Assembly: GCA_965232015.1 (NCBI GenBank)
Contig: OZ246946.1
Location: 3,564,630 to 3,628,629 of the forward strand
Length of the DNA stretch: 64,000 nt
Direction of reading: 5' to 3'
Origin: Vicinamibacteria bacterium
GTDB taxonomy: Bacteria > Acidobacteriota > Vicinamibacteria > Marinacidobacterales > Marinacidobacteraceae
Of the stretch, positions 7,673 to 60,443 are shown piece by piece. Position 1 is the first letter of the stretch, and each line of letters starts with the position of its first letter. The notes beneath the pieces are model-generated. The model saw nothing but the letters and a program-made list of their open reading frames with translations. It did no database searches and was not told where the DNA came from. A program made the translations under genes and the position numbers.

Positions 7673-7701
7673 GGGCCCGCCCGAAGAAGAGGGGGGAGAG
7701 G

Positions 7702-7733: not shown

Positions 7734-7895
7734 AGAGAGAAAGTGATGTTGATCGCGACCTGGAGCGGAGCGAAGGTTGCGATCTGAGGCGCGAAGCGCC
7801 GAGCGGGCCGGGGAGGGGGCCGCTCTCGAAGGCTCGTGGGACTTCATCAGTGCGGTTCCAACGGATCCGCGGCCCCCTCCCCGGCCCGCCCGGTG

Positions 7896-9950: not shown

Positions 9951-10228
9951 GGTCCTCCGTGGACGGGGACCGCGGCGGCCCCGCAAAATGGGACAGCCGG
10001 ACCGCTCCGGCGGACAGGAACGCACGCCGAGAGGTCCGGCTACCGTCTGGAACGGGCAACGCAGGCCGACCGGGAATGGCCACGACTGCGTCCGAAGTGG
10101 AACCGCCGATCCTACCATCCGCAACCGGTGTCTCCGAGACGCCGACGGGTCCCCGGTGCTACCCTTCATTCGGTCCGGCGGGGTGCCGGGTCCGGTCCTT
10201 CTCGGGGAGCTGTCGCGGGACATCTCAA

Positions 10229-12703: not shown

Positions 12704-13153
12704 TCAGTCGCCGGGGGATGCCCGGGCGGGGCGCTCCTTGAACTCGAACTCCTGCTGGCAGCACCAGCACGGTCCGGGGAGGTGCGAGGTGATGTTGCAG
12801 GTGAAGCAGAAGTAATACGGCTCGATCCGTTCTCCGTTCTGGATGGTGTGCAGGTGAAGGATCTTCCCGAGTCCGTCCTCCACGAACAGGAAGACCTCGA
12901 GGGGGTGCCGGTGGACGCGTTCGTCGGTGAGGATCTCGACGCGGATGTCGTCGGGATCGAGCCGGTGCAGCGTGCCGTCCTCCGACTCGATACCGAAGGG
13001 ATCCCCGAAGGCGCAATCTCCCACCGGGCCCGGGGATCCGTCCTTCAGACAGACCGCGCGGCCGGTGACGACGGTCTCGACGCTGTCGGCGAGGGGGGCG
13101 ACCGTCGGGCCCAGCGCCGTGGCCGTGGCGACAATGAGAAAGGCAGCGAGCAT
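12704..13153 (-). CDS. Secreted hypothetical protein with C-terminal Cys cluster (possible metal-binding)
   Basis: Signal-like N-terminus; YYFCFTCNITSHLPGPCWCCQQE. Confidence 0.65.
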   Translation of the reverse strand: MLAAFLIVATATALGPTVAPLADSVETVVTGRAVCLKDGSPGPVGDCAFGDPFGIESEDGTLHRLDPDDIRVEILTDERVHRHPLEVFLFVEDGLGKILHLHTIQNGERIEPYYFCFTCNITSHLPGPCWCCQQEFEFKERPARASPGD

Positions 13154-13183
13154 GACTCCCGGCAGCGTACCACCGGGCTTGCA

Positions 13184-13258
13184 GGCGCGCCGGACTCCAG
13201 TCCGGCAATTCACGAAGCGGAGTGCGCATCCCGGTGCCGCTCTGGAGAGCGGCGCCAC
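13184..13258. repeat. REP-like inverted doublet
   Basis: GCCGGACT-CC-AGTCCGGC within 13184-13207 and reverse GCCGCTCT-GG-AGAGCGGC within 13234-13258. Confidence 0.8.
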
Positions 13259-13312
13259 CTGACCAGTAGCCTGCGTCCCTCGTCGAGCCCTCTGCGAGAA
13301 TCCCCGCGGTTC

Positions 13313-16144: not shown

Positions 16145-16236
16145 ATGGAGCGCCCCGGTGATCCCGGCAGGGGTTCTCCATCGCGATCGAAGGCGCCCTC
16201 GAGCCATCCGTGCCGCTCTGGAGAGCGGCGCTCCAT
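16145..16236. repeat. REP-like doublet (left copy degenerate)
   Basis: TATGGAGCGCC near 16145; GTGCCGCTCTGGAGAGCGGCGCTCCAT at 16210-16236. Confidence 0.75.
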
Positions 16237-16259
16237 GCGGGGACGCTAACCTGCCGGAC

Positions 16260-43402: not shown

Positions 43403-43490
43403 CCTCGCCTACCCGCAAGAGCCACCGCACGGCGCTCGCGGACTGGTGAAGCACGTCTCTCTATCGTGCCGGACTGGAGTCCGGCGCTCC
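43318..43490. repeat. REP-like inverted doublet
   Basis: GGAGCGCCGGACTCCAGTCCGGCA at 43318 and its reverse complement at 43467-43490. Confidence 0.85.
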
Positions 43491-43570
43491 GGCAGGAGGC
43501 GCCGGTCGGGCGTGGAATCCGATGTGGCGCCGGTGCGACACAATGTCCGGGTCGGGGGCCACACGACCCT

Positions 43571-44739
43571 CGAACAGGAACAGCAAGGACATGATCCGGA
43601 AAGGAGCGGCGCGCCGGCCGACGACGCTGCTGCTCGCTGGATGCGCGGCGATGGTCCTCGCCGGCTGCGCCCCGAACGAACCGGAGGCCGTGCAAGCGGG
43701 AGCCGGCGACGAACAGGCGGCCATGGAGACGGCAACCGAGCCGGCCTTCCCGTCCCACCCCGCAACCGAGCCGGCCTTCCCGTCCCGCCCCGCAACCGAG
43801 CCTGCCTTCCCGTCCCGCCCCGCAACCGAGCCTGCCTTCCCGTCCCGCCCCGTGGACGGGCCGATGCCCGAGATCGGACCGGCCCCCGCGGACTACGTGC
43901 CGACAGCGGAGACTGCCCCCGCCACCGATATCTGGCTCGGAGCCCTCGCGCGCAGCGGGGGCTCGCTCGGGGTAGCCGACCTGGAACAGGCGACCGATCG
44001 GGCCGCCTATGACAACCAGCCCAGCTTCCTGCTCGACGGCTCGGCCATCCTCCACACGGCGGCGTTCGAGCGACGCCAGACCGAAGTCATGCGCATCGCT
44101 GTGACCGCGGGCGCCGTCGCACCCGGCGAGCAGCTCACGCACACCGGCGAGGCGAGCGAGTTCTCGCCGGTCCAGATCCCCGGACAGGAGTCCTTCTCCG
44201 CGATCCACGAAGTCCGCGGCAAGCAGTACCTCTGGCGCTACGACCTTTCCGGCGCGGCGGTGGGACCGATCTTCGCCACCGCCGAACCGGTGGGGTATCA
44301 CGCCTGGGCCAACGAACGCGTCGTCGTGATGTTCATCCTGGGGAGCCCGCCCACCCTGCAGGTCGGTGACGCGATGACCGGAGAGATCCGGATCGTGGCC
44401 CGGAATCCCGGCCGTTCCATCCACCGGATTCCGGGCGCGGAGGCGATCTCCTTCGTGCGGAAGGTCGAAGACGGAGGGTGGTGGATCGAACGGCTGGACC
44501 CCGAATCCGGCGCCGCCGTGCGGATCGCGCGAACGCTGCCGGGCCGAGAGGACTACGCGTGGACGCCCGAAGGCGAGATCCTGATGGGTGACGGCTCACG
44601 GTTGTTCGCGTGGTCCGAGGGCTCGGACTGGCGGGAGATCGCCGACTTCGAGGAGCGGGGCCTCGAGGGCATCTCCCGTCTCGCCGTGAGTCCGGACGGC
44701 GCCCGGATCGCGATCGTCGCCGACCGCACCAGCGGCTGA
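43571..44739 (+). CDS. TolB-like beta-propeller lipoprotein
   Basis: LAGC lipobox; YDNQPSF, EFSP, VGYHAW, AVSPDG. Confidence 0.75.
43732..43851 (+). repeat. 4 x 30-bp intragenic tandem repeat (ATEPAFPS[H/R]P)
   Basis: GCAACCGAGCC[G/T]GCCTTCCCGTCCC[A/G]CCCC x4. Confidence 0.95.
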
Positions 44740-44792
44740 GCCGGTGCTGCCGGCGGGAACGTTGACCTCCCTGAAAGGGAACGGCGTTCGGG

Positions 44793-44910
44793 AACGGCCG
44801 CATCGTGGTGCGGGACGGCGAGGTCACGACAGTGGACGAGGCCGAGGTCATGGAACGCGCCCGCGGCTTCGCCGGACCGATCACTGAAGTCGTCCAGGCG
44901 GTCCAGCGGA
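44793..44910 (+). pseudogene. Diverged duplicate of the amidohydrolase 3' end
   Basis: NGRIVVRDGEVTTVDEAEVMERARGFA matches 43178-43295, mostly with third-position changes. Confidence 0.85.
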
Positions 44911-45023
44911 CCCGCCACCGAAGCGAAATGACTATGGAACGCTGCCTGCCCCGCTCCAGAGGGAAAACCGGGCCGAGCTCCACGGCAGTGCGGACCGCGC
45001 GACGGACGAGTCCGGACCGGCCC

Positions 45024-45802
45024 TTATGGAGCGCCGCTTTCTGCAGCGGTAGATTCTCGTAGACTCTGCCTCGGTCGGTCGATGCCTTCCCGATAGTCAA
45101 CCCCGAGGCATGTGTTCGTTACGTCGTCTAGGCGTTGAAACTCGGTGATCTTGAATTCGGAGCCAGATGCTGAGCCGACAGTGTGGCAGACATACAGGGA
45201 ATCGGGCTTCTTCACGAACTTGAACGTGTGGTGAGTGAGGAGTGCGATGATCCGTCGCGTCCACTTGGGTCCGTCGGCCAGTAGCCGGAGACAAGCCGTC
45301 TGATCCTTGGGCTTGGCCCTTGGATTGAAAGGATTGGGCGTGTGAAGGAGCCCGTTGGCGGTCCCGTAGAGCGTCTTGAATCGCTCGTAAGTCAGATAGT
45401 CCGCGTTGGCTGTGACCAGTTCACCCACATAGTTCTTGAAGGCCCCTTCGGGGAGACCTGGCGGCGCAGGGCCAGAGGCGTCAAGACGGAGTGGCTCGGG
45501 ATAGTAGTAGTCAGGGTACGCGTCCTTGATCGTCTTGAGGATATCGCCGGCGTGCCATGAGCGCCGATGGTTGTCTGAAATGGAATTCATGAGGGAGCCG
45601 TCGTCGGTCTCGGTGGCCACGAGCGAAGCGGTAGCAATGAGCTCTAGCACCTGACGGAACTGTAGATATGCGCACTCCGCCATGGGGATGGCGTACAAGA
45701 GATTTGACATTCCCGTGCAGATGTTTCCACTACCTCTAGTCGATGCAAGATCTCCTGCATTCGGCCACGGTATGCGTTCAGTCTCTCGGTTGATCCAAGC
45801 AT
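45024..45802 (-). pseudogene. Low-GC hypothetical protein, apparently frameshifted near 45725
   Basis: AAGGAGG RBS + ATG 45802 (MLGSTERLNAYRGRMQEILHRLEVVE); the long downstream frame (45024-45710) is offset by 1 nt. Confidence 0.55.
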
Positions 45803-45960
45803 GTCTTCCTCCTTGGGATCGGTCCTCGCGGCGTTAGCTCGCGGGGAAGTTCCAGTGAGCACAAGAGCGGAGCTCACCGGGTCACTTCAAGTGAGTCCTC
45901 TGTGTTCAGAGGCCATCGAGTGTAGCGCGGCACTCTTGGTGGAGTGATCGGAAGTCGGTG

Positions 45961-46779
45961 TTACGTCCTGCTGAGACCTGCCCTTCTGAGTAGTGGGGGC
46001 TGACAGGCGACCTCCGGCGCATCGTGGTCGGCGCGTCGCAGCGCGAGGAGCTCCTGATCGAGGCCGTGGCGGACGAATTCCAGCCGCGGTGAGTGCGAGG
46101 CGAGGAGCTCGGCGGGCATCGGTTCGATGCGGAACGGGAAGAGGCGCGGTCCCTCGATCAGGGCTCGGGGAGCGGCCGCAGCCAGGCCACGACTTCGCAG
46201 GACGGCCTCGCCGAGAAAGCTGGTGAGTTCGGGGGCGTGGATCGGATGCGTTGGGGCTGGGCCGTAGATTCCCGGGTGATCCGACTCACAGATCACGCCC
46301 CAGTCCACGAATGAGCGGAGTACGTAGCGCGTAGCGCGCTCGACGCCGGGGCGCTCCCCGTACTCCTCGCGGATCCGGGCTTGGACCCCGGCCGCTGCCG
46401 CTTGGCCGTCGAGTCGGATCTGCCGGCCCACCCGCGCGGCCACGGTGCCCCAAAACGGGTAAGCGGCGAGCAGCATCCCCCAATGGACGGCCAATCGGTC
46501 GCCGTCGTGTGCCTGCCGCAGCAGGTCGAGGCCGTTGTTCCGGAGTCCTTCGAGCCCCTTGGGGACGAGGAGCCACGTCTTGATCAGGACCGTGATCGCC
46601 TTCTCCCGTCCGCTACGGGGCGCATTGCCCCCTTGGGAGATCTGATCCCCAAGACGAGCATCGAGAGCGTCGTGGACGGCCTTCTTGTCGTTCCCGGCGA
46701 GGACGAGCCTGGCGGTCTCCTCTACCCAGTCGAGCCGGACGAGGCGGCCGATGCCGACCTTCCGCGCCGTGTCCCTCAC
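45961..46779 (-). CDS. brxA: BREX type 3 BrxA-like protein
   Basis: KAITVLIKTW, HWGMLLAAYPFW, RYVLRSFVDWG; last gene after pglZ with GTGA overlap. Confidence 0.7.
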   Translation of the reverse strand: MRDTARKVGIGRLVRLDWVEETARLVLAGNDKKAVHDALDARLGDQISQGGNAPRSGREKAITVLIKTWLLVPKGLEGLRNNGLDLLRQAHDGDRLAVHWGMLLAAYPFWGTVAARVGRQIRLDGQAAAAGVQARIREEYGERPGVERATRYVLRSFVDWGVICESDHPGIYGPAPTHPIHAPELTSFLGEAVLRSRGLAAAAPRALIEGPRLFPFRIEPMPAELLASHSPRLEFVRHGLDQELLALRRADHDAPEVACQPPLLRRAGLSRT

Positions 46780-48770
46780 GCCGGTTGTCGCGTGATGCGC
46801 ACGAGCGGGACGATCACTTCCTCAAGGTTGGCGCCGCCGTGGCAGACGACGGTCTTGCCCTCCGGGACGAAGGCGCAGCGACCGGGCGCGAGCAGAGGCA
46901 GGAAGCCGCCCGGCAGTCCCAGGGGAGGCCAGGCTGTCGCCTCGGGAAAACGCTTCGCGACCTGGCGTCGCAGCGCCTCGTCCTGGAAGATCCTGACCCT
47001 CTCTCCCCGCAGGTTGGAGAGAGCTCCTTCGGCTGGCCTTCCGAGTCCTCGCGCCTCGACGTTGCCGTGGTCCGAGGTAAGCCAGACGGTGAACCCGCCG
47101 TCCAGAAGACGGTCGAGCAGCCCGCAGAGGAATGGTCCCTCTGCCCAATGTCGAACCTGGTTGAGCATGCCGCGCTCGCCGAGCGGTGTCCCGTGCATGA
47201 TGTCGTCCACGGTGTTCACAACGATGGCCACCGCCCGGGGTTTCGGATCGGCGAGCAGTGTCTCCACCGCCTCCGGATCTGCGGCTTCGAACTTCTTCCG
47301 GTAGGCGATCTCGGCGGGACCGAGGCCACAGCCCCGCATGAAGCGCCTCCAGTGGGTCGCCTCCGTGGCCGTGGTCGCGATGCTGTTCTCGAAGTGAAAC
47401 GGTGGGCGGCCTGCGAAGAGGGCCTGGCGCGAGACCGCCGTGAGCGTCGGGATCCACGCGAAGACGGCGTCCTCCTGGAACTGGAGAGCGGGTCGCTGCC
47501 GGGTCAGTTCCTCTCTCAACACGGCCCACTGCGGGAGTGCGAGTCCGTCGAGCACCAGGAGCGCGGCGCGGGATCCCGCGCCGCCAAGGCCTCGGGCAAG
47601 CCGATGGGGGACGTGATGGAGCATCACGGGCGCACTCGGTGGGAGGGTGGAGAGGGGTCCGTAGTGCGCCGGGAGCCACTTGGCGAAGGCCTCGTCCGCC
47701 TGCTGCTCGAGGCGCCGGAAACGGTCGCGGCACGCCGAATCGGCATCCCCCAGTCTCAGGAATGTGGCGCGGGCTTCCCCCCACCGGCGAGCGAACTTGC
47801 GCCACGCATGGTGGCCGGACACCTCGCTGGGTAAGCGGTCCTCCGCGACCCGCAGCAGGTGTTCCGCGCGGCGTCGCTGCGCCTTTGGAGCATCGCGACG
47901 GATGCCGACCCGGATCCACGTCTCGTCTGGAGCGGGCTCGATGTCATGCTCGACCGGAGTCAGAAGCCCCTCGAGGAACAGAGTGTCGAGATAGGCCCGA
48001 ACGCGCGGGTCGTCGAACGGGAGATCAGCGGGTCCGGGGATGGCCTGGGAAGGACGGTGCTCCGTGTGTCCGGCGCGCCGGTCGAGGAACCGCAACCAGC
48101 GTTCGTCAAGGAAGGACAGAAACGCGTTGCGGTCCCGCAGCAGTTGGCCGAGGGGCCAGTCCTCAAAGATCCCTCGGCTCTCGAGCACGCGGAGGAACCG
48201 GTCGTCGAGGCTCGCGGAAACTTGCCGTTCCGCGTAGTGTCGTTCGAGGAGCAGCGTCAGGAGGTCGGCGGGTTCCCGGACCGTCTCCGGCGTAACGCCG
48301 AACAGATGGCGGAGCACGAAGTCGCGGCTCTCATCGGCACCGAGGGCCTTGTCCCCTGCCTGCTGCTGAATGACGTAAAGGCGCTCTCGCTCGGTGGGGT
48401 CCAGCTCCCGGACGATGGTGGGACTGAGCCGCGTGAAGAAGTCGCCGAGCCGGAGGGAGACCCGCTCGGCGCCGTCCGTCAGATCGAAGGGAGGTTCAGT
48501 CTCCTCGTCCCCGACCACGATCACGAGGTCGAGCGTCTCGCCATCGTCCCAGCGCGGCCGGAAGCGGGCCTCGTAGTCGAAGCGGAACGCTATGGGGTCG
48601 TCGAGGAAGAGGAAATCGAAGCCGCGCCGCTCGAGAGCGGCCAGGACACCCGCTTCGCGGAGGAGCCTCTCGGGATCCCGGACGATGGTCGGACGGCCGA
48701 GGCCCGGTGTGAAGCGACTCAGGATCGCGGCGACGAGTCGCCGTCCTGGATCCCGCTCTCCTGCTGTCAC
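46776..48770 (-). CDS. pglZ: BREX-3 PglZ alkaline-phosphatase-like protein
   Basis: LLVLDGLALPQW, IPTLTAVSRQALFAG, VDDIMHG, TSDHGN, HGGANLEEVIVP. Confidence 0.92.
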   Translation of the reverse strand: MTAGERDPGRRLVAAILSRFTPGLGRPTIVRDPERLLREAGVLAALERRGFDFLFLDDPIAFRFDYEARFRPRWDDGETLDLVIVVGDEETEPPFDLTDGAERVSLRLGDFFTRLSPTIVRELDPTERERLYVIQQQAGDKALGADESRDFVLRHLFGVTPETVREPADLLTLLLERHYAERQVSASLDDRFLRVLESRGIFEDWPLGQLLRDRNAFLSFLDERWLRFLDRRAGHTEHRPSQAIPGPADLPFDDPRVRAYLDTLFLEGLLTPVEHDIEPAPDETWIRVGIRRDAPKAQRRRAEHLLRVAEDRLPSEVSGHHAWRKFARRWGEARATFLRLGDADSACRDRFRRLEQQADEAFAKWLPAHYGPLSTLPPSAPVMLHHVPHRLARGLGGAGSRAALLVLDGLALPQWAVLREELTRQRPALQFQEDAVFAWIPTLTAVSRQALFAGRPPFHFENSIATTATEATHWRRFMRGCGLGPAEIAYRKKFEAADPEAVETLLADPKPRAVAIVVNTVDDIMHGTPLGERGMLNQVRHWAEGPFLCGLLDRLLDGGFTVWLTSDHGNVEARGLGRPAEGALSNLRGERVRIFQDEALRRQVAKRFPEATAWPPLGLPGGFLPLLAPGRCAFVPEGKTVVCHGGANLEEVIVPLVRITRQPA

Positions 48771-51254
48771 CGCGCTCCGCTGCGGGTGAGCGCGTTGTCG
48801 TACCACATCAGGAGCTTCGGATCCTCCTCGAGGGCCTTCCGCGGGATTCTCTCGCCAACCGCGATGATGGTCTCATCGTCCCGCTTCTGCCAGCAGTCCC
48901 GGAATCCGGCCCGGACCGCCTCCATGCGCACGGATGGCATCCGTCGCACTCTGTCGCCTGCGTAGCGGTGGAACTCGCGGAGGAGGGCGCGCTGGCGGAG
49001 ACGCTCCACCTCGGGCGCCTTCGCCGGATCCGGGATGTGCCAGCGTCCCTCCGCCTTCGATCGCAGCCGTGCGGCACCCTTAGGTAGGTTCCGGAGGTCC
49101 TTGAAGGTCGTCGAAAGCCACGAGTGGATTGGCCCCGGCACAGGCCCGTCTCCGTCGTAGCAGAGAAAGTTCTCCTCCAGCAGGAGTGTCAGTTCGAGCC
49201 GGGCCTCGTGCTTCAGCCATCCTCCGATCTCGCGCATGAAGTTCGGGTGGAGCTCCTGGAACGTCTGCGGCTTCCGCTTCAGATCGGAACGGAGCCACCG
49301 AATCGCCGTCTCCTCGTCGCGGACCACGACCGCGGGTTCGAATAGGCCCTTGACCCGCAAGCGGCCGGACTCGTAGCGAGGGACCTGCTCGGGAAGGAAG
49401 AACATGCCGTCCCGCTCGACGAACCGTTCTCGGAGGCCGGCATAGAACCCGGAGGCGGAAAGGGGGACCGCCGCTCGGCGCTCGACGTGGAAGGCGACCA
49501 TGCGGTCATAGAGCAGGAAGTCCTGTCGTTCCCGCATGACCTCGCTCCGGCCTTCCCGCTCGGCGAACGCAGGAAGTTGACGCAGGTGGGTCTCAATAAA
49601 GTCCCACGCTGCCTCCTCCGTCCCAGCCCTGAGCCGAAAGCGCTGCTCGAGCCCACCGTTCGGCTTGTAGGCCGAGATCACTAGGTCCTTCTTCACTGCC
49701 CCGGCAGCCATCATCTGATTGAAAGTGCCTGCCTTCTTGTCCAGAATGCGCACGTCAGCCACCACGAACCCAGCCGCCCAGAGGCTCTCCTGGATGGCGT
49801 TCCAGACAGCGTTCTTCGAATTGTGGAACACGACAGTCATCCAGCGACCCGGCTTCAGTACGCGGCAATACTCCCGGAAGCACTCTCGCATCATGCGCTG
49901 GTATCGTTGAAGGGTCTTGTTCTGGATCTTGCTCTCGATAGCCTCGGCATCTCCGCTTGTGAAAACACCGTGAAATGCCTCAATGAGAAAGTTGAGTTCA
50001 GCGTATGTCAGATTGCTGCCAAATGGTGGATCGGTGAAAACGTAGTCAATGCTCCGTGAAGGACTCATGAGACGCGAACAGTCCCCGGTCGTAACGCCGA
50101 CCGAGCCGCCCTGAGCCACTGGCCTGCGGAATGCCTTCTTGAGACGCTTTCGCTTCCCGCCTAGAATGTAGTCGGGGTGGCATTCCGCATGCTGTGACAG
50201 AAGTCGAATGAGTCCAGGCATATACTGGTTGACTTGAGAATAGTGAGTCGCACTATATCGATTCTGGAGAGACATACCGGTGATTGCCTGCTCCGCAAAG
50301 TATCGGATCATGGCGGCAAGGCGACTTTTCTTATGCGTACGCCCTTGGTCAGCGGTTGTCATCATGCCGAGAGTATCGACTCTCCGCCAGACTGCTGCCA
50401 GTGCTTGTGCCGCTCGAGGCAGATAGAGGTGGTGCAGATAGGAGAACTGGCAGACTCCAGATCTCCACTGATCACCCCACACCTCGACATCGTCAGGCGC
50501 ATGCATCATACGATCGGTAGGAATTTCGAGAGGAGGAGGCAGGTGTGAGATGCGCCGCAGCCTCTCCCTGTCATGGATGTCCAGCGGTTTTTCGTACCCC
50601 TTCTTTCCTCCGGCGGTGTAGTTCAGAAACACCGGGACGCGTTTGGTCCTGCTTACCGTGCGGTTGAGCAGAGGATCGTGTTCGGCAGTGCGGAGCCGGA
50701 GAAGTTGTCGTTTCACCAACTGCACGGCACACCGTCGACAGGGAAACCGGGATCGGATCCGTCCTGTACTGCGGTCTAGAGCCTCTTCGAGGAACACGAT
50801 CTCCGTCCCACACTCAGGACACGCGAAGACCTCACTCCAGACCGTGTAGTTGATCCGGCCTATTGTCCCGTCGGAGTGGCGAGTCCTATACATCCATCCG
50901 ACTTCTTTTTCCACTTCACTGAGGAGACTCTGGGCGGCCTGGGCGAACTCGTCCACGTCGAAAGGGATGTTGTAGTTCGCGGCGATGAAGGTGGCGGCCG
51001 GGGAGAGGTCGCCGAGGATGGCGCGCCGCGTGCCCCACTCCGGTGGTTCGCGTCCCGCTTCCTTCCACTCGGCCTCCAGTTTCTGCCGGTACTCGTCGGG
51101 CGCGGTGCCGCACCACTGCGCCGCGACGCCGGTCATTCCGGACCCGCAGAAGCCATCGAGCACTAGGAGCCTGCGCCGTAGAAAGTGATGCGGGGTGACG
51201 GCGCGGTGGTGGTGGAGGTCGTCAGTGACTGTAGCGGGTGTACTGGAAACGAAC

Positions 51255-51271
51255 TAAGTCGTTGGTATAAT
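51255..51271 (+). promoter_or_regulatory. Extended -10 (TGGTATAAT) with overlapping IHF-like site for IS1182 tnp
   Basis: TAAGTCGTTGGTATAAT about 60 bp upstream of the tnp ATG. Confidence 0.55.
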
Positions 51272-51333
51272 ACTGTGTTATGAGACGCAGTACGCCCGCC
51301 GCGAAGGACGGCGGCGCGAGGAGGGGATGGAAG

Positions 51334-52656
51334 ATGGCGACCCGATTCCGGCCATATGAACCGGACCAGATGGCGCTGATGCCGGCGAAGCCCAGCGACT
51401 GGCTTCCCGCGGACCACCTGGCCCATCACGTCCGTGACATCGTGGACCATCTCGACCTGGAGCCGTTCTACGCGCCGTATACGGGCGACGGGCGGCGGAA
51501 CTCTCCGTACTCGCCGAAGATGATGGTGACGATCCTGATCTATGGCTACGCGACGGGGGTGCGTTCCTCGCGGAAGATCGCGCAGAGGCTTCACGAGGAT
51601 GTGGCGTTCCGGATGCTGGCGGCGAAGAACTTCCCGGCGCATCGGACGATCTGCGCGTTCCGGAAGCGGCACCTGTCGGACTTTCGGCACCTGTTTCTGG
51701 AGGTGGTCCGGATCGCGCGGGAGATGGGGCTGGTTCGGTTCGGGACGCTGTCGATAGACGGGACGAAGGTGCGAGCGAACGCGAGCAAGCGGAAGGCGAT
51801 GAGTTACGGGCGGATGGTCCAGGAGGAGGCGCGGCTGAAGGAGGAGATCGCGGAGCTGTTGGCGGCGGCGGAGCGGGCCGATGCGGAGGAGGACGAGCGG
51901 CTGGGTGAGGAGGTGCGAGGCGACGAGTTGCCGGCGGAGTTGGCCCGGAGGGAGGAGCGCCTGGAGGCGATCCGGGCGGCGCAGGCGCGGCTGGAAGCGG
52001 CGGCGCGGGAGAGGGACGACGCCCGGAACCGCAAGCCGGGTCAGGATCGGCCAGCGCGGGGAGGACAGCCGTACAAGCTGAAGTATGGGGAGCCGGACCG
52101 GCGAGCGCAGAGCAACTTCACGGACCCGGAGAGCCGGATCATGAGGACGAGCACGGAGGGGTACCAGCAGTGCTACAACGCGCAGACGGCGGTGGATGAC
52201 GAGAACCAGCTCGTGGTGGGCGCATCGGTGACGGATAGCGCCAGCGACCAGGGGGAGCTGACGGCCCGGCTGGACGAGGTGGAGGCTGACTTCGGTGAGA
52301 AGCCGGAGGAGGTTCTGGCGGATGCGGGGTACAACGGTGAGGAGGAGCTCGCGGAGCTGGAGAGGCGGGGCGTCACCGGGTATGTGGCGCTGGGTCGGGA
52401 GGGGAAGAAGCAGGGTGAGGTGGACGCGGAGAAGCGGCCGGCGGCGGCTCGGATGAAGAAGCAGCTGGCGACGCCGGAGGGGCGGGCGCGATATGCGAGA
52501 CGGAAGTGGCTGTCGGAGGCGCCGAACGGGTGGATCAAGGAGGTGCTCGGGTTTCGCCGATTCAGCTTCCGGGGGCTGGCGCAGGTTCGAGCCGAGTGGG
52601 ACCTTGTGTGCTTGGCGGTGAACATCAAGAGGATCGGTGCGCTCCGAGCCGGCTGA
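51334..52656 (+). CDS. IS1182-family transposase
   Basis: WLPADHLA, YGYATGVRSSRKI, IDGTKVRANAS, TDPESRIM, LADAGY, FSFRGL. Confidence 0.93.
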   Translation: MATRFRPYEPDQMALMPAKPSDWLPADHLAHHVRDIVDHLDLEPFYAPYTGDGRRNSPYSPKMMVTILIYGYATGVRSSRKIAQRLHEDVAFRMLAAKNFPAHRTICAFRKRHLSDFRHLFLEVVRIAREMGLVRFGTLSIDGTKVRANASKRKAMSYGRMVQEEARLKEEIAELLAAAERADAEEDERLGEEVRGDELPAELARREERLEAIRAAQARLEAAARERDDARNRKPGQDRPARGGQPYKLKYGEPDRRAQSNFTDPESRIMRTSTEGYQQCYNAQTAVDDENQLVVGASVTDSASDQGELTARLDEVEADFGEKPEEVLADAGYNGEEELAELERRGVTGYVALGREGKKQGEVDAEKRPAAARMKKQLATPEGRARYARRKWLSEAPNGWIKEVLGFRRFSFRGLAQVRAEWDLVCLAVNIKRIGALRAG

Positions 52657-53286
52657 GTGCGCTCTCGGGGGCGGTTTTTCGGTGTGTACGGGCCAAAAAC
52701 GCCCCAAGAACGCCCTGTAGGGCGGGTTTCGGGTCCGGCAGCCTCGTCCCGGCGACTCAATCCGCCTATGATCGGGCTCTGCGTCCGGCTCCGACCACTA
52801 CGCGCCTGATGCGAGGACACTCCCGTGGCGCAGGCTCCTAGGTCCCCGGGCTTGGTGTAGTGGAGGATGGACGGAACGATCGCGAGGTGGGGCACTTTGG
52901 TGTGGTATCCGTGCGCCCGGTAGAGCGCGTCGGTCTTCCCCACACTCACATCCACCGCGAACGGCTCGCGGTGGTAGGGCTCGTCCGGGTCGTAGGGACG
53001 GCCGTAGTGCTCGACGAACTCCTCGAGGAACGGGTTGGGGCAGGCCGTGTACCAAGGCGGGTCCGAGAGTCGGAGGATGTCCTCATCGTCCCCCGTCGGG
53101 AAATCGGGTCGTTTCCGCAGCTCGGGCAGCAGCTCCCTGAGTCGGGTGAGATAGTGATCGCGGCGCGCGTCCTCGGAAGCGAAGGTCTGCCCGAGGCATT
53201 CCACCGGTTCCGTGCAAGAGAGTCCCGCGCCCGGTGCCTTCTTCGGTCGGGGCGCGTTCGGGAGCAGCGGTTTCGGGTGGCCTTTC

Positions 53287-55206
53287 TCAGCGGTCATCGT
53301 TTCCTGGAGGCGGAGGTGGCTCCGCGCGGAGCGCGGCTCCGGTATCGGTGAGGACGTAGCGCTGGTTGGCGGCGCGCGGTTTCTCGGGATTCGTCATTCG
53401 CAGGATGCCGGCGTCGAGCAGAGGCCCGATCTGAGTGCGGCGGAAGTGGGTGCGGTGGGATGCTCCTACGCGGGCGAGGAGTTCCGAGAGGCTCTGCGGC
53501 TCGTGGCAGGCGTTCACCACGGCCGTCTGCCACGGAGTGAGGGATGTCGCGGCGCTCGGCCGAGGGTCGCGCCTGTCCCGATCCCGTGGTTCCGACGAGT
53601 GACCAAGTTGACCTCTCTCTTCGTCGACTTGGTCACTGGAGTGACCAAGTGGACCCCGCTCTGTCTCGACTTGGTCACCCGTGGAGTGACCAAGTCCGCC
53701 CACCTGCTCCTCGACTTGGTCACTGGAAGTGTTTCTCCGCTCCTGGACCGCCTCCCGGAGCCGCTTCGAGGCGCGGAGGCGTCCCGCGCCGGCGGCAGCC
53801 AGCAGAGCCCGGTCAGCGAGTCCCTCGGTGGCGGCGGCCACTTCCCGGGAGGCGAGACCGGTGGCCGCTCGGATCTGCGACCCCGACACTTCACCCTGTG
53901 CGAGCGTGAGCGACAGGATTCGGGCCTCGGGTTCGGAGACTTCTCCCAGTCGCTGTCGGAATCTGGACCGGGCTACAGACAGCTCTTCCCGCGACAGGAC
54001 GAGCTCGAATCGCTTGCGCCGCCGGCTGTTTCGGATCCGCGGCGGCACACAGCCGATCTCTTGCCAGTTCCGGTACACATCGCGAAGGCCCCAGCCGGCG
54101 TTCTCCGAGAGTCCGATCCGGCGGAACGCCCGCACGATCTGCGGATTCCTCGCTTCCTTTTCGCCAGGTTCCATCAGGTCCGACAGGGGAGCGAAGGCGT
54201 CCCCCGGATTCCGGAAGGCCGTCCGGTGCGGATCGTGGAGGATCTCGGCGCTGCGTCCGTGATCCGCATAGTCCTGGTGCATGAGCAGATTGACCATGGC
54301 CTCGCGCACGGCGGAAAAGTCCGGTGGCGTGTCGTCTCGCTGGAACGTCGCCGGGTTCAGCCGGAACGGGTGCTCGGCGATCCGGGGATACCAGACTTCG
54401 AGCAGAGCCCGCCACGTCCGCACCAGGTTGTCCTCCAGCACCACGCGATCGAACCATCGCTCTCCGTTTGCCACACGCTCCCGAGGCCCGGCGAATCGCT
54501 GGCAGTCCACCACCGGGCGCGGCAGGGATTGCGCGAACGCCCGATCGGACCCGAACAAGAGGATGGCCGCCCGCGTCGGCTTCCGGGCGCTTCTCTCCTC
54601 TCGCAGAAGTCCCATCACGCTGAGGAAGTCCCGATCGTCGAGAGCGCGGTAGGAGCGGTTGCCCGGTCGGGCCTCGTAGGCCGCCCGGTACCAGCGAAGG
54701 CTGTCTGCATCCACAGCCCACTCGAGGTTGAAGTCCACCGGCTGGCTGTCGTAGCGGTCGGCTGCCGCGTCCACCAGGAAACGATCGCGCTCCCGGTCGG
54801 TCAGACGAAGGTCGCTTCCCCCGCTCCGCACGAACGCGCGCCGAATGTCTCCGTCGATGAACACCGGCTTCTCGGACCGGTGTGCTTCCGGGATGTGGAA
54901 GGCAAGGACGGCTGCACCCTCGTGGTGCAGGAGGTGCTCCCGGACGGGGATCAGAGCCGAAATCTTGTTCCGCTGGCGGAGCGTGCTCAGAAAGTCCGAC
55001 TGCACCTTGTCCAAATCGAGGACTCCGACGACCGCGAATCCCCTGGCGCTCTCCTGAACGCCGAACACGAGATGGCCGCCGTCGGTGTTGGCGAACGCCG
55101 AGACGGTCTCGTAGGCGGTGCGGGGGACGGCGCGTCGGGCCGACTTGAACTCGACATCGCGCCATTCCGGCGAGCCGAGTCGCTCGACAAGCTCGTCGTG
55201 CGTCAT
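53287..55206 (-). CDS. AlbA_2/Schlafen-domain + HATPase_c_4 (RecG-C-like) + wHTH protein
   Basis: EWRDVEFKSA, TVSAFANTDGG.LVFGV, AVREAMVNLLMHQDY, RNPQI, ENAGWG; C-terminal PEKPRAANQRY. Confidence 0.85.
   Translation of the reverse strand: MTHDELVERLGSPEWRDVEFKSARRAVPRTAYETVSAFANTDGGHLVFGVQESARGFAVVGVLDLDKVQSDFLSTLRQRNKISALIPVREHLLHHEGAAVLAFHIPEAHRSEKPVFIDGDIRRAFVRSGGSDLRLTDRERDRFLVDAAADRYDSQPVDFNLEWAVDADSLRWYRAAYEARPGNRSYRALDDRDFLSVMGLLREERSARKPTRAAILLFGSDRAFAQSLPRPVVDCQRFAGPRERVANGERWFDRVVLEDNLVRTWRALLEVWYPRIAEHPFRLNPATFQRDDTPPDFSAVREAMVNLLMHQDYADHGRSAEILHDPHRTAFRNPGDAFAPLSDLMEPGEKEARNPQIVRAFRRIGLSENAGWGLRDVYRNWQEIGCVPPRIRNSRRRKRFELVLSREELSVARSRFRQRLGEVSEPEARILSLTLAQGEVSGSQIRAATGLASREVAAATEGLADRALLAAAGAGRLRASKRLREAVQERRNTSSDQVEEQVGGLGHSTGDQVETERGPLGHSSDQVDEERGQLGHSSEPRDRDRRDPRPSAATSLTPWQTAVVNACHEPQSLSELLARVGASHRTHFRRTQIGPLLDAGILRMTNPEKPRAANQRYVLTDTGAALRAEPPPPPGNDDR
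53599..53727. repeat. Three in-frame units GTGACCAAGT-N18-ACTTGGTCAC
   Basis: 10-bp perfect inverted arms at 53599/53627, 53641/53669, 53686/53714; different 18-nt middles. Confidence 0.9.
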
Positions 55207-55210
55207 TCGC

Positions 55211-58200
55211 TCACTTCCGCACGATGCGGACTCGCGCCATATCCCTGCCGCGAGTGATCTCTTCCAGAAAGTCTTCGAGTCGTCTCCTGAGCTCGGCTGG
55301 CGTAGCAGGCCCTCCCTCGCGGAGCAGGCTCCTCGCGAGAGCCTTGTCTTCGACCTCCACTTTCTCGAGGCGCGACAGGGCGGCGGCTACGGCAGCGAGG
55401 GTTGGCGCGTCCACGCTGGCCGACAGCCGGGTTTGGTCACTCAGAGTCGAGCGGAACTTCTCGATCAGCGCCTGCTGGACCGCGGGCAGGAGCGCGCAGG
55501 TCTCTCTGGTCGCGTCGTCGTCCAGGTTGGTCCGCAGCGTGTCGGCCCAGCCCTGCTCCAAGCGGTCCAGATCTCGTGCCAGACGATTCAGAGCAGCGCT
55601 AGCCGAAGCGCCGGAGGCCGCAGTCGGGCGGAACCCGCAGGGGCAGATCGGTTCGCGGGAAAGCTCCGCGTCAGACGGGCCAGGGCACGCGGGGAGCCCC
55701 TGGACCTCCGCCTCGAAGGTCCGGATCTGCTGCTTCGGAAGGAGTGAGATCTCCTTGGTATAGCGCCCAAGAGTGCGCACACGAAGGTCCTGGAGGAGAC
55801 GCCGGCGACGCGCGTCGTCGCTCGGACCGAGTCGAGCCCGCTGGTGGCTCGCGATGTAAACGCTCCGGGACTTCTCCGCCCATTTCGTGAGACGCGCTTC
55901 GATCGTCGCCAGAAACCCCGAAGCTTCCCGGGTCTCGCGGCGGCGCAGGCTGGCAAGCACGTCGTCTCGTACGTTCCGGATGGACTTGGCCACATGGTGG
56001 TCCGCCGGTAGCGCAGCTTCCGCCCGGGACAGGTATTGGGTCGGGCCGTGGAGCCGGGATACCAGCCTCTGGAGGCCTTCGACCTCATCGAGCGCCACGA
56101 GCCCGTCGCGACGCTGCTCCACCGCCTCGACCGAGTGGCGGAAGTTCTTGAACTTGGCCGGAGTGTCCAGCACTTGAACCGATTCGATGAACTGCCTCGT
56201 CTTCGTGATCCGCTCCCGCAGTTCGTCGGTCTCCTTGGAGGAGTCGAGAACGTCCTTTCCCCACAGCGTGATGCCCTGACGGAGCTCCCCGACCCCGGCC
56301 GCGAGCCGCTCCACGAACCCGGAAGCCGCCTGTTGGAAGCGCTGGACAGCTTCCGCCTTTCCCCGCGTGAGTTGCTTCGCCACCCCGGAAGGCAGACCCA
56401 CGAGCTCGAACAGCGCCGTGATGGCAGGGAGGTTCCAGTCCTTTGGGGGCACGATGTAGCGAAACGCGATGAGATCGGGTAGCGGCGTTGTGGCGAGAGC
56501 GGTCAGACTGAGCGCATCGAACTTCCGGTTCGAAAGCGAAAGCAGGATGTGGCCCGAGTGGACCAGCGCCGCGAGTACCACGACGACCCACTCGGGCTCG
56601 AGTCTCCGGTTGGCCGGGTCCAGATACTCCACGCCATCGGCTGTCTCGGTGATCAGCTCTTCGCGGCGAACGACCTGTCCAGCCTTTCTTGCCGCCAGCG
56701 CATCCAGAATGAACCGGGCATATCGCGACTTGTCGGGGCGGATCGTCTCACCGTCGAGCAGTTCGAGTCCCTTGAGCACCGCCTGGGGCTCGTGCGCCGG
56801 CCGCTGGCCTGCGATCATCGCGAGCGCTCCGCGCGCCGCCTGCTCGCGCCTCTGTCGAGTGATGAGCACGCCGAAGCTCGGATACTCCGGCGCGGTGTCT
56901 CGGAAGCGTGACTCGAGGCAGATCTCGGAGATGCCGTCCACGACGGCGCGGAAGGACATCCGGCGGTGCGGGTTCGCTCCAGTGCGCTGGCGGAGCTGTT
57001 GACCCCTGAGCCAGGTCTTGACTTTCCGGTTCCGCCCTTCGTGCGTCACCCGAAACGCTCCGAACATCTGTTCGCGAAGCAGTTCAGTGAGCGCCCCGAG
57101 CGACTCCTGGGCCTTGTTGCCGTAGATGGCCTTGTGGGCGCCCGCGGACTGCTTCGCCAGCGCGTTGGCCGCGGCGAATCGGGTCAGCGTCGTGCGGAAC
57201 CCGTCGCCCGCCGGCCCGAAGCGGAAGAACACTTCGTCGGCCTTCTGTTCATCGCGGAAGCGCGGAGGTCCGAAGGGTTGCAGGAAATACACGTAGAAGT
57301 CGCGCGGCGGCGCAGCCGTGGATCGCTCGTTCGGGGCGCCGAAGAACAGGTAGCCGGGTCGAGTGGTATTCCGCTCACGCCAGACCAGGTCGTGCTCCCA
57401 TATCTGGAAACCAGTGACGTAGGGCTGGTCCTCGGAGACGTCCATGAGCCCCAGGAGCGCCCGGTAGTAGGCGCGGTCGAGGTGCTCATCGTCCAGCGTT
57501 TCCGCCCGCGCTTCGATCCGGGCGTCGAAGTCATGAGTCTTCCCGATGTCGAGGTAGTACTGCCCGTTTCGAGAGTTCTCGGTGATGAACTGACCGCTGA
57601 CGGTGCGGTGGATCTCCCGGAGCACCGTCTGGACCATGGCGAGCAGGTCTTCGGCTGGTTCGTTTCCCATGTCCTCGACTCCGGGCTGGTAGAGACACAG
57701 GCTGTCCCGGAGTTCGGAGGCGGTCGCGCCGATAGGCGAGTGGATGTCGCCGGTTGTGAGACGGTGGACCGAGAGCGCGCGGATCACTCGAATCGCCATT
57801 GGGCGGTACGGCGGGCGGGTGTAGGCGTTCCGGACTCGCGACTCGAGCACTTCGCTGCAATCGATGATCTCCCGGATATCGGGCAGGGTCCGGAAGGCGG
57901 GATTCGCGCGGAGCGTGCTCCAGTAGCTGTCGTAAGCGATAAGCCCGGGCTCGCTCTCCGGCACTTCCTCGTCGATCATCCCATCCATCGCGAGCGAGAG
58001 CGTCTTCAGGATCTCCCGCTTCTCCACGGCCGCGACGCGCTCGAAGGTGGCGATGTAGTCGGGATGAACCGGGAACAGGCTCACGTACTCGTCGAGCCGT
58101 TCCCCCAGACGACCGTAGAGGCGGGTGAAGCGCTTGAGGTGGACGCGGATTCGTGCCCGCTGGTCCGGCGTTTTGCGGAGCAGGCGCTCCGCGACCACGA

Positions 58201-58957
58201 ACTGCACGTCGGTCCGTGCGATGAGGACCTGCTCGAAGCGGTCCTTGACGCGACGCACCGAGTCGGCGACGTACGAGAACCGCTGGCTGTCGAAGATCGC
58301 TTCCTGGACGCCGGCGATGAAACGAAGCCGCAGCGAGGTGCAGGACTCTCCCAGCTCGCGCAGGAAGTTGAGGTCGAGGATGAGCTGCTGGTCGCGTCGA
58401 GAACGGAGGAAGTCGAGCAGCTCGTCCACAACCAGCAGCAGCCCGTGGTCCGGGTAGCGCCCGTGGAAGGCGCTCATCATCTCCTCGAAACACCGCTTGT
58501 TGCTGGAGACCTGATCGGCCCCAGGGAAGCGGTACTGGATCCCGAGCTCCACTAGCCGCGCCTCGAGTTCGCGCGTGAGGATCTCGCGGAGCGGCATTTC
58601 CGTGGAGCCGATCTCGGTTCGGACGACATGGAACCGGCCCGCGACCTGTGCTGCTGCTTCCCGGACGTCGGTCCGGGTGACAGCAGCGTAGAGATCCTCT
58701 CGCTCGGCGATGGCGGAGATCACGGCCATAAGGTGGGACTTGCCGGTGCCGTAGTTCCCGACGACGAGCAGGCCCTTGTTGTCGGACGGAGAAGTGAACT
58801 GGAGCTGCGGGATGACCAGGTGGATCAGCCGCTCCGCCAGGTCCCGGGAGATGACGAACGACTCGACGAGCTGGCGGGCGTGGTCCGAGTCGCTCGCGTC
58901 GCGGAGCTGCACGACCGTCTCGATGGGGTCAAACTGGATGAGGTCGCCGTATTTCAT
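55211..58957 (-). CDS. brxC: BREX-3 BrxC/PglY-like ATPase (DUF6079 type)
   Basis: MKYGDLIQFDPIETVVQL, GNYGTGKSHLM (Walker A), LLVVDELLDFL (Walker B), FPVHP. Confidence 0.88.
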   Translation of the reverse strand: MKYGDLIQFDPIETVVQLRDASDSDHARQLVESFVISRDLAERLIHLVIPQLQFTSPSDNKGLLVVGNYGTGKSHLMAVISAIAEREDLYAAVTRTDVREAAAQVAGRFHVVRTEIGSTEMPLREILTRELEARLVELGIQYRFPGADQVSSNKRCFEEMMSAFHGRYPDHGLLLVVDELLDFLRSRRDQQLILDLNFLRELGESCTSLRLRFIAGVQEAIFDSQRFSYVADSVRRVKDRFEQVLIARTDVQFVVAERLLRKTPDQRARIRVHLKRFTRLYGRLGERLDEYVSLFPVHPDYIATFERVAAVEKREILKTLSLAMDGMIDEEVPESEPGLIAYDSYWSTLRANPAFRTLPDIREIIDCSEVLESRVRNAYTRPPYRPMAIRVIRALSVHRLTTGDIHSPIGATASELRDSLCLYQPGVEDMGNEPAEDLLAMVQTVLREIHRTVSGQFITENSRNGQYYLDIGKTHDFDARIEARAETLDDEHLDRAYYRALLGLMDVSEDQPYVTGFQIWEHDLVWRERNTTRPGYLFFGAPNERSTAAPPRDFYVYFLQPFGPPRFRDEQKADEVFFRFGPAGDGFRTTLTRFAAANALAKQSAGAHKAIYGNKAQESLGALTELLREQMFGAFRVTHEGRNRKVKTWLRGQQLRQRTGANPHRRMSFRAVVDGISEICLESRFRDTAPEYPSFGVLITRQRREQAARGALAMIAGQRPAHEPQAVLKGLELLDGETIRPDKSRYARFILDALAARKAGQVVRREELITETADGVEYLDPANRRLEPEWVVVVLAALVHSGHILLSLSNRKFDALSLTALATTPLPDLIAFRYIVPPKDWNLPAITALFELVGLPSGVAKQLTRGKAEAVQRFQQAASGFVERLAAGVGELRQGITLWGKDVLDSSKETDELRERITKTRQFIESVQVLDTPAKFKNFRHSVEAVEQRRDGLVALDEVEGLQRLVSRLHGPTQYLSRAEAALPADHHVAKSIRNVRDDVLASLRRRETREASGFLATIEARLTKWAEKSRSVYIASHQRARLGPSDDARRRRLLQDLRVRTLGRYTKEISLLPKQQIRTFEAEVQGLPACPGPSDAELSREPICPCGFRPTAASGASASAALNRLARDLDRLEQGWADTLRTNLDDDATRETCALLPAVQQALIEKFRSTLSDQTRLSASVDAPTLAAVAAALSRLEKVEVEDKALARSLLREGGPATPAELRRRLEDFLEEITRGRDMARVRIVRK

Positions 58958-59484
58958 CGCGTGTGGCTTTTGGGGGACGGGTCGAGGAGCACGTGCTGGA
59001 TCACGCACGCCGGCCACGTCCGGTATTCCGGGTGTCCCGGCGCGGCGTAGCGAATGGTGTTGCCCCGGATGGACCCCGGCCAGGTCGCCACGACCGGCCG
59101 GTCGCGGGCCAGGGAGCGGAGGAGTTCCAGAGGGTTCTGCCTCAGGTCCGCCGAGGACAGGATCTCGATGTTGTCGAGCAGAACGGGCTCAGGTGTCTTC
59201 CCTGAACGACCGAGAGCGGTCTGGCGAAAAAGCTGCGACACGCGCAGTGGTCGCTCTCGCGGGCTGAGTTCGAGGAGCCGGCGTGACATCTCCAGGCCGA
59301 GGTTGACGACTTGGGCGCCTGTCCGGTCCGCGACTTCGTGGAGGCACAGCGTCTTGCCCGCGCTCCGGCCGCCCACGATCAGCATGAGCTGGTGGCGGAG
59401 CTGCCGCAAGTGAGGCAGCCGACCAACGACCTCGTCAGCGGCCGTGGAGGCGCGGGCACGAGCAGTATCGGAGAGCAGTTGCAC
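58954..59484 (-). CDS. brxF: BREX-3 P-loop protein BrxF
   Basis: GRSAGKT, VNLGLEMSRRL, LLDNIEIL, NPLELL, YAAPGHPEY. Confidence 0.85.
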   Translation of the reverse strand: MQLLSDTARARASTAADEVVGRLPHLRQLRHQLMLIVGGRSAGKTLCLHEVADRTGAQVVNLGLEMSRRLLELSPRERPLRVSQLFRQTALGRSGKTPEPVLLDNIEILSSADLRQNPLELLRSLARDRPVVATWPGSIRGNTIRYAAPGHPEYRTWPACVIQHVLLDPSPKSHTR

Positions 59485-59606
59485 AGGGTCGGAGGCGCAT
59501 TATCCCCCGGACCGGCGGCCGTGGGACCGGAGGACCGGACGCTCCGCGTCACATCCGAACCCCCGGCGGTGGGGCCATGCCGGAGCCGAGTGCACCCGCC
59601 GGTATC

Positions 59607-59631
59607 GGGCGCCGGTCTCCAGACCGGCGCC
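59607..59631. repeat. REP-like hairpin variant at the BREX island right edge
   Basis: GGCGCCGGTCT-CC-AGACCGGCGCC. Confidence 0.6.
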
Positions 59632-59666
59632 TCGGTGTCGAGGGCGCCTCCGGAACGCAGCCGGCG

Positions 59667-60443
59667 CTATCCGCGGACTTCGGCGAGGAGTTCGAGCACC
59701 TCGTCGTGGAGGGCGCCGTTCGTACTCAGGGCGTTGGGGCCGTGGATCGTTCGGTTGCCGTCCCAGTCGGTGAACCGGCCGCCCGCCTCCTCGAGGATCG
59801 GCAGGAAAGGACTCGAGTCCCACGCCTTCATCTCCGGATCGAGGGCGATCTCGGAACGGCCGGTGCAGACGAGCGAGTGGCCGAAGGCGTCGCCCCAGGT
59901 GCGGCGGACCGCGCCCCGGGCGCCGACGGCGTCCCAGATCGGGCCGATGGTCGCCGGGTCGGTCGTGGTGGCGAGCGCGTTGGCGATGTTCGTCACCTTC
60001 GACACTCGGGCCGGGCGTCCGTTCCAGAACGCGCCCACATCCCGGGCGCCCGAGACCATCTCGCCCACTCCGGCGAGGTTGGAGACTCCGACGACGGCCT
60101 CGCCGGAGATTTCGAGCCCGATCAGCACCCCGAACAGCGGGACCCCGTGGATGAACGAGGTCGTGCCGTCGATCGGGTCGAGGATCCAGCGGTGCGTGGG
60201 ATCGGAACCGGACTCCCCGTCCTCCTCGCCGAGGACGCGGTGGCCGGGGAACTTCGCCTCGATGCGCTTGCGAAGCAATCGCTCGCAGGCGACGTCGGCT
60301 TCGGTCACCGGGGTGCGGTCGGGCTTGGTGGTGACTCCCACGCCGACCTGGAAGTGACGCATCACGAGGCGTCCGGCCTCCCAGGCGATCTCGGTGGCGA
60401 AGTCGAGGAGTTCCCGGTTGCTCGCCGGGTGTCGGTCGGTCAC
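59667..60443 (-). CDS. Inositol monophosphatase family protein (HisN-like)
   Basis: KPDRTPVTEAD, GEE, WILDPIDGT, WD..P..EAGG; GTG start inferred. Confidence 0.9.
   Translation of the reverse strand: MTDRHPASNRELLDFATEIAWEAGRLVMRHFQVGVGVTTKPDRTPVTEADVACERLLRKRIEAKFPGHRVLGEEDGESGSDPTHRWILDPIDGTTSFIHGVPLFGVLIGLEISGEAVVGVSNLAGVGEMVSGARDVGAFWNGRPARVSKVTNIANALATTTDPATIGPIWDAVGARGAVRRTWGDAFGHSLVCTGRSEIALDPEMKAWDSSPFLPILEEAGGRFTDWDGNRTIHGPNALSTNGALHDEVLELLAEVRG

Follow-up and report, generated by a model that had tools for sequence, protein, structure and literature searches.

A type-3 BREX island lacking the BrxHII helicase and carrying an embedded Schlafen-GHKL-wHTH gene in a Vicinamibacteria bacterium

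Type-3 bacteriophage exclusion (BREX) loci are the closest described counterparts of the element analysed here, a seven-gene operon on the minus strand (positions 45961-59484) of a 64,000-nucleotide stretch from a Vicinamibacteria bacterium (assembly GCA_965232015.1, contig OZ246946.1), a stretch that we call the window. The canonical type-3 order, brxF-brxC-pglXI-brxHII-pglZ-brxA, was reportedly set out by Goldfarb et al. in 2015. That order is also the one cited by Rakesh and Krishnan (NAR 2026, PMC12839542), who give BrxHII in 702 of 919 type-3 taxa (77%) and in their section 35 describe Schlafen-HisK-wHTH (winged helix-turn-helix) genes as embedded backup effectors. Schlafen-ATPase-DNA-binding proteins are described as tightly associated with BREX in PMC13462974, where the same kind is named 'Cluster 2', and it appears as the 'Schlatpase'-HTH supradomain in bioRxiv 10.64898/2026.05.29.728809. 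For the related SLFN-pAgo, the latter source states that tetramerisation reconstitutes an active nuclease and that tRNA cleavage then causes abortive infection, and defence and tRNA cleavage by pSlfn proteins are treated in bioRxiv 10.1101/2025.07.24.666596. Experimental studies of type-3 BREX are not reported in the literature that we covered. With a probability of about 0.7, we conclude that this type-3 BREX island was acquired horizontally and belongs to a helicase-less lineage, and that its Schlafen gene is a portable accessory module and not a replacement for the helicase.

The operon has the order brxF-brxC-[SLFN_AlbA_2/GHKL/wHTH]-pglXI-pglZ-brxA, and PADLOC and Pfam matches were obtained for every gene. 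It holds the type-3 components BrxF, a DUF6079 BrxC, a methyltransferase of the N6_N4 type (PglXI, not PglX), PglZ and BrxA, all in canonical order. The first gene, brxF (58954-59484, minus strand like all genes of the operon), encodes 176 residues of a BrxB-like inactive STAND ATPase of type-3 BREX (PDLC02497, 131.8 bits), and is followed by the type-3 brxC/pglY (55211-58957), whose 1248-residue AAA+ ATPase matches the BrxC profile end to end (PDLC02482, 1618.8 bits) and is the only DUF6079 protein across the genome (PF19557, 1482.9 bits). The Schlafen accessory gene (53287-55206) encodes 639 residues with a Schlafen/AlbA_2 nuclease domain, a GHKL ATPase, a repeat linker and a C-terminal Fic-like wHTH. 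The methyltransferase gene is present, interrupted by an insertion sequence (IS): its 5' fragment upstream of the IS (52838-53297) matches PglXI PDLC02541 with 206.4 bits over profile positions 16-158, and its 3' fragment (48767-51162), which carries the N6-adenine methyltransferase core (Pfam N6_N4_Mtase), the target recognition domain and the C-terminal part, with 985.1 bits over positions 145-918, so that the two cover positions 16-918 of 919. The operon ends with pglZ (46776-48770; 664 residues from GTG at 48770, with an alternative GTG at 48806; PDLC02558, 729.9 bits; Pfam PF08665, 68.4 bits) and brxA (45961-46779; 272 residues; PDLC02444, 268.2 bits).

Inspection of the junctions revealed an ATGA overlap between the brxF stop and the brxC start, a 4-nt gap between brxC and the Schlafen gene (TGA-GCGA-ATG), an 11-nt overlap between the Schlafen gene and pglXI, and GTGA overlaps at both the pglXI-pglZ and the pglZ-brxA boundaries. 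A sigma-70 and terminator scan of 44800-59800 gave no site on the operon strand, a scan that is uninformative for an organism of 70% G+C. The GTGA overlap between the pglXI stop and the pglZ start leaves no space for a helicase between them, and the SNF2 helicase BrxHII that occupies this position in canonical type-3 loci is thus absent, which is how the window locus differs from them. The gene order, each of the junctions and the lack of room for brxHII had all been read by a first-pass annotation from the bare DNA letters, and they hold as described, as does the IS that it implied.

The absence of BrxHII extends to the whole genome. The BrxHII profile (PDLC02500), which gives 1414.8 bits on a true BrxHII (locus L038, 13769-16588), reached at most 77.3 bits in the 3.88-Mb single-contig genome of the window, with no ortholog, and these weak matches represent generic SNF2 proteins, because the same search also matches in 14 of 14 control genomes. 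A protein search of the genome with the L038 BrxHII gave a maximum of 70.9 bits at 30% identity. The best helicase candidate, a 1094-residue open reading frame (ORF) about 1.6 Mb away, scores 895.1 bits for DrmD against 164-172 bits for BrxHII and is a DISARM-type SNF2 helicase, not BrxHII; it lies at about 1990080-1993364 of the contig (G000:C1; L108:2581-5865, minus strand), beside two large neighbours without a PADLOC match. Since BrxHII is given for 77% of type-3 taxa in the text of PMC12839542, a type-3 locus without it does not fall outside what has been published; a search of the main text of that paper gave no discussion of a helicase-less type-3 subset.

We surveyed related loci with the PglXI 3' fragment, taking one genome per species; the scan returned 166 relatives, the best 80 of which were kept (45-62% identity, many phyla). 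Of the 80, 47 had BrxC and PglZ covered to at least 80% and correctly ordered around PglXI; the 33 that were dropped were mostly cut by contig ends or rearranged, and the addition of the window and of L094, a locus from the same family, gave 49. BrxHII is present in 22 of these, and in the other 27 the retrieved locus showed none. A close homolog of the window Schlafen protein (at least 38% identity and 60% coverage) occurs in 16 loci, 12 without and 4 with BrxHII, the latter all in one Spirochaetia clade; one of the 16 (L006) has an ORF without the N-terminal nuclease motif. Only a C-terminal remnant is left in 6 loci, none of which has BrxHII, and a distant homolog (24-28% identity) is found in 8, of which 3 lack and 5 keep the helicase; one of these (L068) lies downstream of pglXI, outside the slot between brxC and pglXI, and SLFN_AlbA_2 and HATPase_c_4 were both recovered by Pfam in 6 of 6 distant homologs checked. 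The remaining 19 loci have no Schlafen gene (6 without and 13 with BrxHII).

A Schlafen-GHKL gene is thus present in 24 of 49 loci, in 15 of 27 helicase-less and 9 of 22 helicase-bearing ones (Fisher p=0.39, not significant), and 12 of the 27 helicase-less loci have no intact copy, 6 having none and 6 only the wHTH remnant. These counts bear on the proposal of the first-pass annotation that the locus may represent a distinct BREX-3 subtype in which the Schlafen gene is tied to helicase loss. The survey and the incongruent trees described below do not uphold it: beyond common descent there is no support for a joint subtype marked by the Schlafen gene and the missing helicase, and the gene, which occurs with and without BrxHII, largely fits the picture of a sporadic passenger unrelated to helicase loss, an outcome that the annotation itself had regarded as fatal to its idea.

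The phylogeny of the core was inferred from concatenated BrxC, PglXI and PglZ (2676 columns; IQ-TREE quick search, LG+G4). In this tree the window pairs with L094 (support 100) within a clade of 12 loci (SH-aLRT, the Shimodaira-Hasegawa-like approximate likelihood ratio test, 99). BrxHII occurs in 0 of the 12, the close relative L094 included; the Schlafen gene is found in 8 and a remnant in 2. On the whole tree the presence of BrxHII requires at least 11 changes and that of the close Schlafen subfamily at least 8. The tree of 14 Schlafen proteins resolves into two subfamilies (100/100) that do not follow the branching of the core tree. Loci L029 and L079, for example, are sisters in the core tree (100) and have Schlafen genes of different subfamilies, and forcing these two genes into one clade is rejected by the approximately unbiased (AU) test with p=1e-4, a value weakened by the fact that the group was named after the pairwise identities had been seen. 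Taken together, the two trees show that lack of BrxHII is characteristic of the lineage, and that the Schlafen gene, although old in that lineage, has been exchanged and lost like cargo. The persistence of brxF, brxC, pglXI, pglZ and brxA without the helicase across a deep clade bears on what a minimal working type-3 system consists of.

Several observations weigh against a merely portable gene. When loci with the close subfamily, intact or as a remnant, are pooled, BrxHII is missing in 18 of 22 against 9 of the 27 others (raw Fisher p=0.0013), and phylogenetically independent pairs (close subfamily versus helicase-less state) are on average 3.4 concordant, 0 discordant and 3.6 uninformative. 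The Schlafen genes of the window and L094, 58% identical at the protein level, are sisters in both trees, so that the gene was kept with the core since their divergence, and the window gene is translationally coupled on both sides, at the brxC and the pglXI junctions. The locus sample is also biased towards relatives of the window's PglXI. As to function, no experiment on this exact Schlafen-GHKL-wHTH-in-BREX architecture was found in the papers covered, and in one published pSlfn screen 2 of 7 tested proteins protected, both of other architectures.

The same enrichment, the presence of the gene or its remnant in 10 of the 12 loci of the helicase-less clade, the tight coupling within the operon and the identical layout of L094 at 51-63% protein identity would be expected if the Schlafen-GHKL-wHTH protein were integral to a distinct helicase-less BREX-3 subtype and took over or compensated for BrxHII. 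We consider this improbable, however, since 4 loci combine the close subfamily with BrxHII and 5 more a distant Schlafen-GHKL gene with BrxHII, the core persists with neither gene in 6 helicase-less loci and with a wHTH stub in another 6, the Schlafen tree conflicts with that of the core, and the predicted RNase/GHKL fold has no translocase motifs. The association of the close subfamily with the helicase-less state follows the clades, and the independent pairs are not significant either, with a median p of 0.25 for the close subfamily and of 0.25-0.5 for Schlafen against helicase loss, in a comparison underpowered at 7-8 pairs. A variant of the idea, that in one deep type-3 lineage BrxHII was lost for good and the Schlafen-GHKL-wHTH protein is now a working partner of the core instead of free cargo, would explain both why the close subfamily is enriched where BrxHII is missing and why the gene is so tightly coupled in translation; the protein could, for instance, guard the helicase-less BrxC-PglXI-PglZ machine, its RNase being set off once that machine is inhibited or overloaded. 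This too we regard as unlikely. No paper linking helicase absence with Schlafen was found in searches on brxHII, BREX with AlbA_2, and BREX with Schlafen.

The portable-module reading agrees with what occupies the same positions elsewhere. PADLOC annotation of the other loci revealed that the two slots flanking pglXI, brxC-pglXI and pglXI-(brxHII-)pglZ, hold other defence genes: Gabija (GajA/GajB), SIR2-HerA, Ppl, HEC-01, PDC-S02, SoFic, OLD-type ATPases, AbiU and IetS, as well as reverse-transcriptase (DRT) genes and second pglXI copies. BrxHII, where present, is directly upstream of pglZ. The relatives thus display two fixed cargo slots in which defence genes are swapped in and out, Schlafen-GHKL-wHTH most often, and this gene appears to be the commonest cargo of the brxC-pglXI slot in type-3 BREX. 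The locus is not a new kind of system, as both type-3 loci without the helicase and Schlafen genes embedded in BREX have been published. The window protein has the same three-part architecture as the published Schlafen-HisK-wHTH kind, with no architectural difference, and like it lies within the core genes of a BREX locus. What our analysis adds to that kind is the brxC-pglXI position, its frequency (24 of 49 loci, plus 6 remnants), its two subfamilies and its incongruence with the core tree.

Other occupants of the slots were also noted. Full-length second pglXI paralogs are present in L036 (14618-17332; PADLOC PglXI, 1069.7 bits) and L004 (2453-5200), and the members of protein cluster C2 in L005, L048, L067 and L068 are likewise second pglXI paralogs. 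In the pglXI-pglZ slot of L022, L030, L041 and L070 there is a shorter Schlafen-family protein of about 420-455 residues with the motif EDTSLELK, distinct from the gene of the brxC-pglXI slot; it makes up a two-gene cassette, its partner immediately upstream being a Ppl-like ATPase-nuclease in L022, L030 and L070 and, in L041, which has no Ppl, a ThsA/LmuA-like gene.

The domain content of the window Schlafen protein is supported by Pfam matches above the respective cut-offs for SLFN_AlbA_2 (PF04326; 50.0 bits, cut-off 25.3), HATPase_c_4, which follows the Schlafen domain (PF13749; 32.4 bits, cut-off 26), and the Fic-like_C wHTH (45.9 bits, cut-off 27), and the PADLOC SLFN-pAgo profile matches residues 30-315. 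The catalytic Ex4(E/D)xK motif of pSlfn proteins, as defined in the text of bioRxiv 10.1101/2025.07.24.666596, corresponds to E14/E19/K21. All 13 full-length homologs in the alignment share it, as do 24 of the 34 Schlafen-family slot ORFs; these 24 are all those that retain the N-terminal domain, the other 10 being N-terminally truncated. Among 15 homologs, invariant residues cluster at positions 302-373 in the GHKL region. We take these to be the N and G boxes. A profile of the family matches the bacterial Protein Data Bank chains 2kyy (AlbA_2 domain; E 1.5e-13), 4rgl (Fic C-terminal wHTH) and 3lmm, and over the motif region mammalian SLFN5, SLFN8 and SLFN14 (E 2e-4 to 7e-3). An AlphaFold2 monomer model built from a 15-row alignment was too poor for a fold search, with a mean predicted local distance difference test (pLDDT) score of 55.9 and values below 50 in the Schlafen domain. 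The linker before the C-terminal wHTH (residues ~500-555) consists of short degenerate repeats (DQV...LGHS-like; model pLDDT below 50), and its length is highly variable among homologs (alignment columns 500-680), with long expansions in L034, L041, L072 and L079.

With the SLFN-pAgo of Runella zeae (RzAgo) the window protein shares the N-terminal Schlafen and GHKL domains (PF04326 and PF13749); it differs in having a wHTH tail in place of the Argonaute core, and its trigger therefore cannot be guide-RNA-directed target recognition. By homology, the protein would most likely be a self-contained second-line effector, an ATP-gated tRNase. The wHTH tail may bind nucleic acids and serve as its sensor or regulatory module; alternatively, the trigger may be detected elsewhere in the protein. 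The Schlafen RNase would then cut tRNA and abort the infection, and we infer the tRNase activity, the ATP-driven activation and the abortive outcome from the related systems, by analogy with which oligomerisation is also expected. The core to which it would be second in line comprises, as predicted, BrxF, the ATPase BrxC, PglXI as the methyltransferase marking self DNA, PglZ as a phosphatase-fold putative effector and BrxA as a DNA-binding component. The first-pass annotation had suggested that the Schlafen protein acts as a backup or abortive effector or as a regulator; the effector idea is in line with the proposal made in section 35 of PMC12839542, while a role as stand-in for the helicase is not sustained.

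The alternative of a DNA-binding regulator of the BREX operon, similar to BrxR, with a functional wHTH and with the Schlafen and GHKL domains as a sensory appendage, would account for the two wHTH-type regions of the protein and for the remnants. These frames lie directly upstream of pglXI (L005, 8913-9584; L007, 9040-9576; L031, 9084-9509; L049, 9238-9582; also L013 and L070 by tblastn), and 4 of the 4 checked are open and contain the Fic-like_C wHTH alone (Pfam, E 1e-11 to 1e-14), so that a wHTH-only frame survives in 6 helicase-less loci. They may represent a retained small DNA-binding protein or a deletion scar that spares the overlapping pglXI start, in which case they persist for that reason only. 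The conservation of the nuclease motif and of the GHKL residues in every full-length copy argues for an enzymatic function, and no operator or binding site was identified; we regard a mainly regulatory role as doubtful.

The insertion in pglXI spans 51163-52837 (plus strand; 1675 bp including one CTAG copy). Its ends are defined by perfect 15-nt terminal inverted repeats (51163-51177 and 52827-52841), both of which contain the CTAG duplication, and its transposase ORF (51280-52656, plus strand; Pfam DDE_Tnp_1, DUF772 and DDE_Tnp_1_6) is flanked by promoter-like and terminator-like sites in the scan mentioned above. It is presumably an IS5/IS1182-like element. There are 4 long copies in the genome, of which one other is full-length and 100% identical and two are at 95-96%. 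In the public sequencing run X5, a 599-nt contig with zero mismatches joins 51162 to 52838 and omits exactly the 1675 bases, and without them the two pglXI fragments are, from their coordinates, in frame and would encode 951 residues. The operon thus also exists in an IS-free form, and the insertion is very recent, as the identical second genomic copy also indicates. Contigs of runs X1 and X4, which contain 97-98% of sampled words, end at the IS borders; these runs may be the source sample and are not independent evidence. Another joint occurs in runs X1 and X6 (51136 to 52846, separated by 34 other letters); its shorter side is only 26-29 nt, and it probably comes from a diverged relative.

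Because the recently transposed IS splits pglXI, the BREX part of the operon in this genome is probably inactive at present, whereas the Schlafen gene, upstream of the break, is intact. Type-1 BREX can be inactivated or phase-varied through pglX. The window locus resembles that case in being switched off by loss of a methyltransferase, although here the cause is an IS insertion and the gene is the unrelated type-3 methyltransferase PglXI. The interrupted methyltransferase could also be viewed as one sign of a decaying, non-functional locus, with helicase loss as part of the decay and the at least 11 losses or gains of BrxHII on the tree as another sign. This is very unlikely, as the six remaining ORFs are intact with their overlaps preserved, the break is very recent, and the layout without a helicase has been kept throughout a deep clade. 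The IS-broken and IS-free alleles of the same operon constitute a natural pair for testing.

Evidence that the locus is an acquired island comes from related genomes and from base composition. A genome of the same genus (G002, L115) is collinear with the window on both sides and has 1.2 kb in place of the window's 16.4 kb (43310-59670), an interval that comprises the BREX operon and two unknown genes (43522-44739, plus strand, and 45024-45710, minus strand). The G+C content at third codon positions (GC3) is 0.73-0.82 in the BREX genes versus 0.84-0.93 in the flanking genes. From the empty site and the lower GC3 it follows that the BREX locus is an acquired island. BrxC homologs were found in 3 of 60 related genomes searched. 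One of these, from a different genus of the same family (G007), contains L094, with the identical layout brxF-brxC-Schlafen-pglXI-pglZ-brxA, no helicase and an intact PglXI of 923 residues, at a chromosomal site different from that of the ortholog of the window's flanking IMPase gene; in the other two (G008 and G036) the homologs are on contigs of 5.6 and 4.4 kb, too short for the architecture to be read.

The ribosomal-protein/secY/adk/map/rpoA cluster and an EF-G gene occupy positions 1-10223 of the window, which places the island in the core chromosome, as opposed to a prophage or a plasmid-like region. The window contains no tRNA gene. Within the island, the 228-residue ORF directly downstream of brxA (45024-45710, minus strand; GC3 0.68) had no Pfam or PADLOC match and no homolog among 81 related loci, and the 1-kb bin 45001-46000 has the lowest G+C of the window (0.58). 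The window holds a second defence element, separated from the BREX island by about 30 kb. It is an MmeI-like type IIG restriction-methyltransferase (12782-16129, plus strand; PADLOC REase_MTase_IIG, 1092.9 bits) with all five MmeI Pfam domains, followed by a 521-residue ORF without a Pfam or PADLOC match (16158-17723, plus strand) and then by a DDE_Tnp_1_4 transposase (19357-20916, minus strand).

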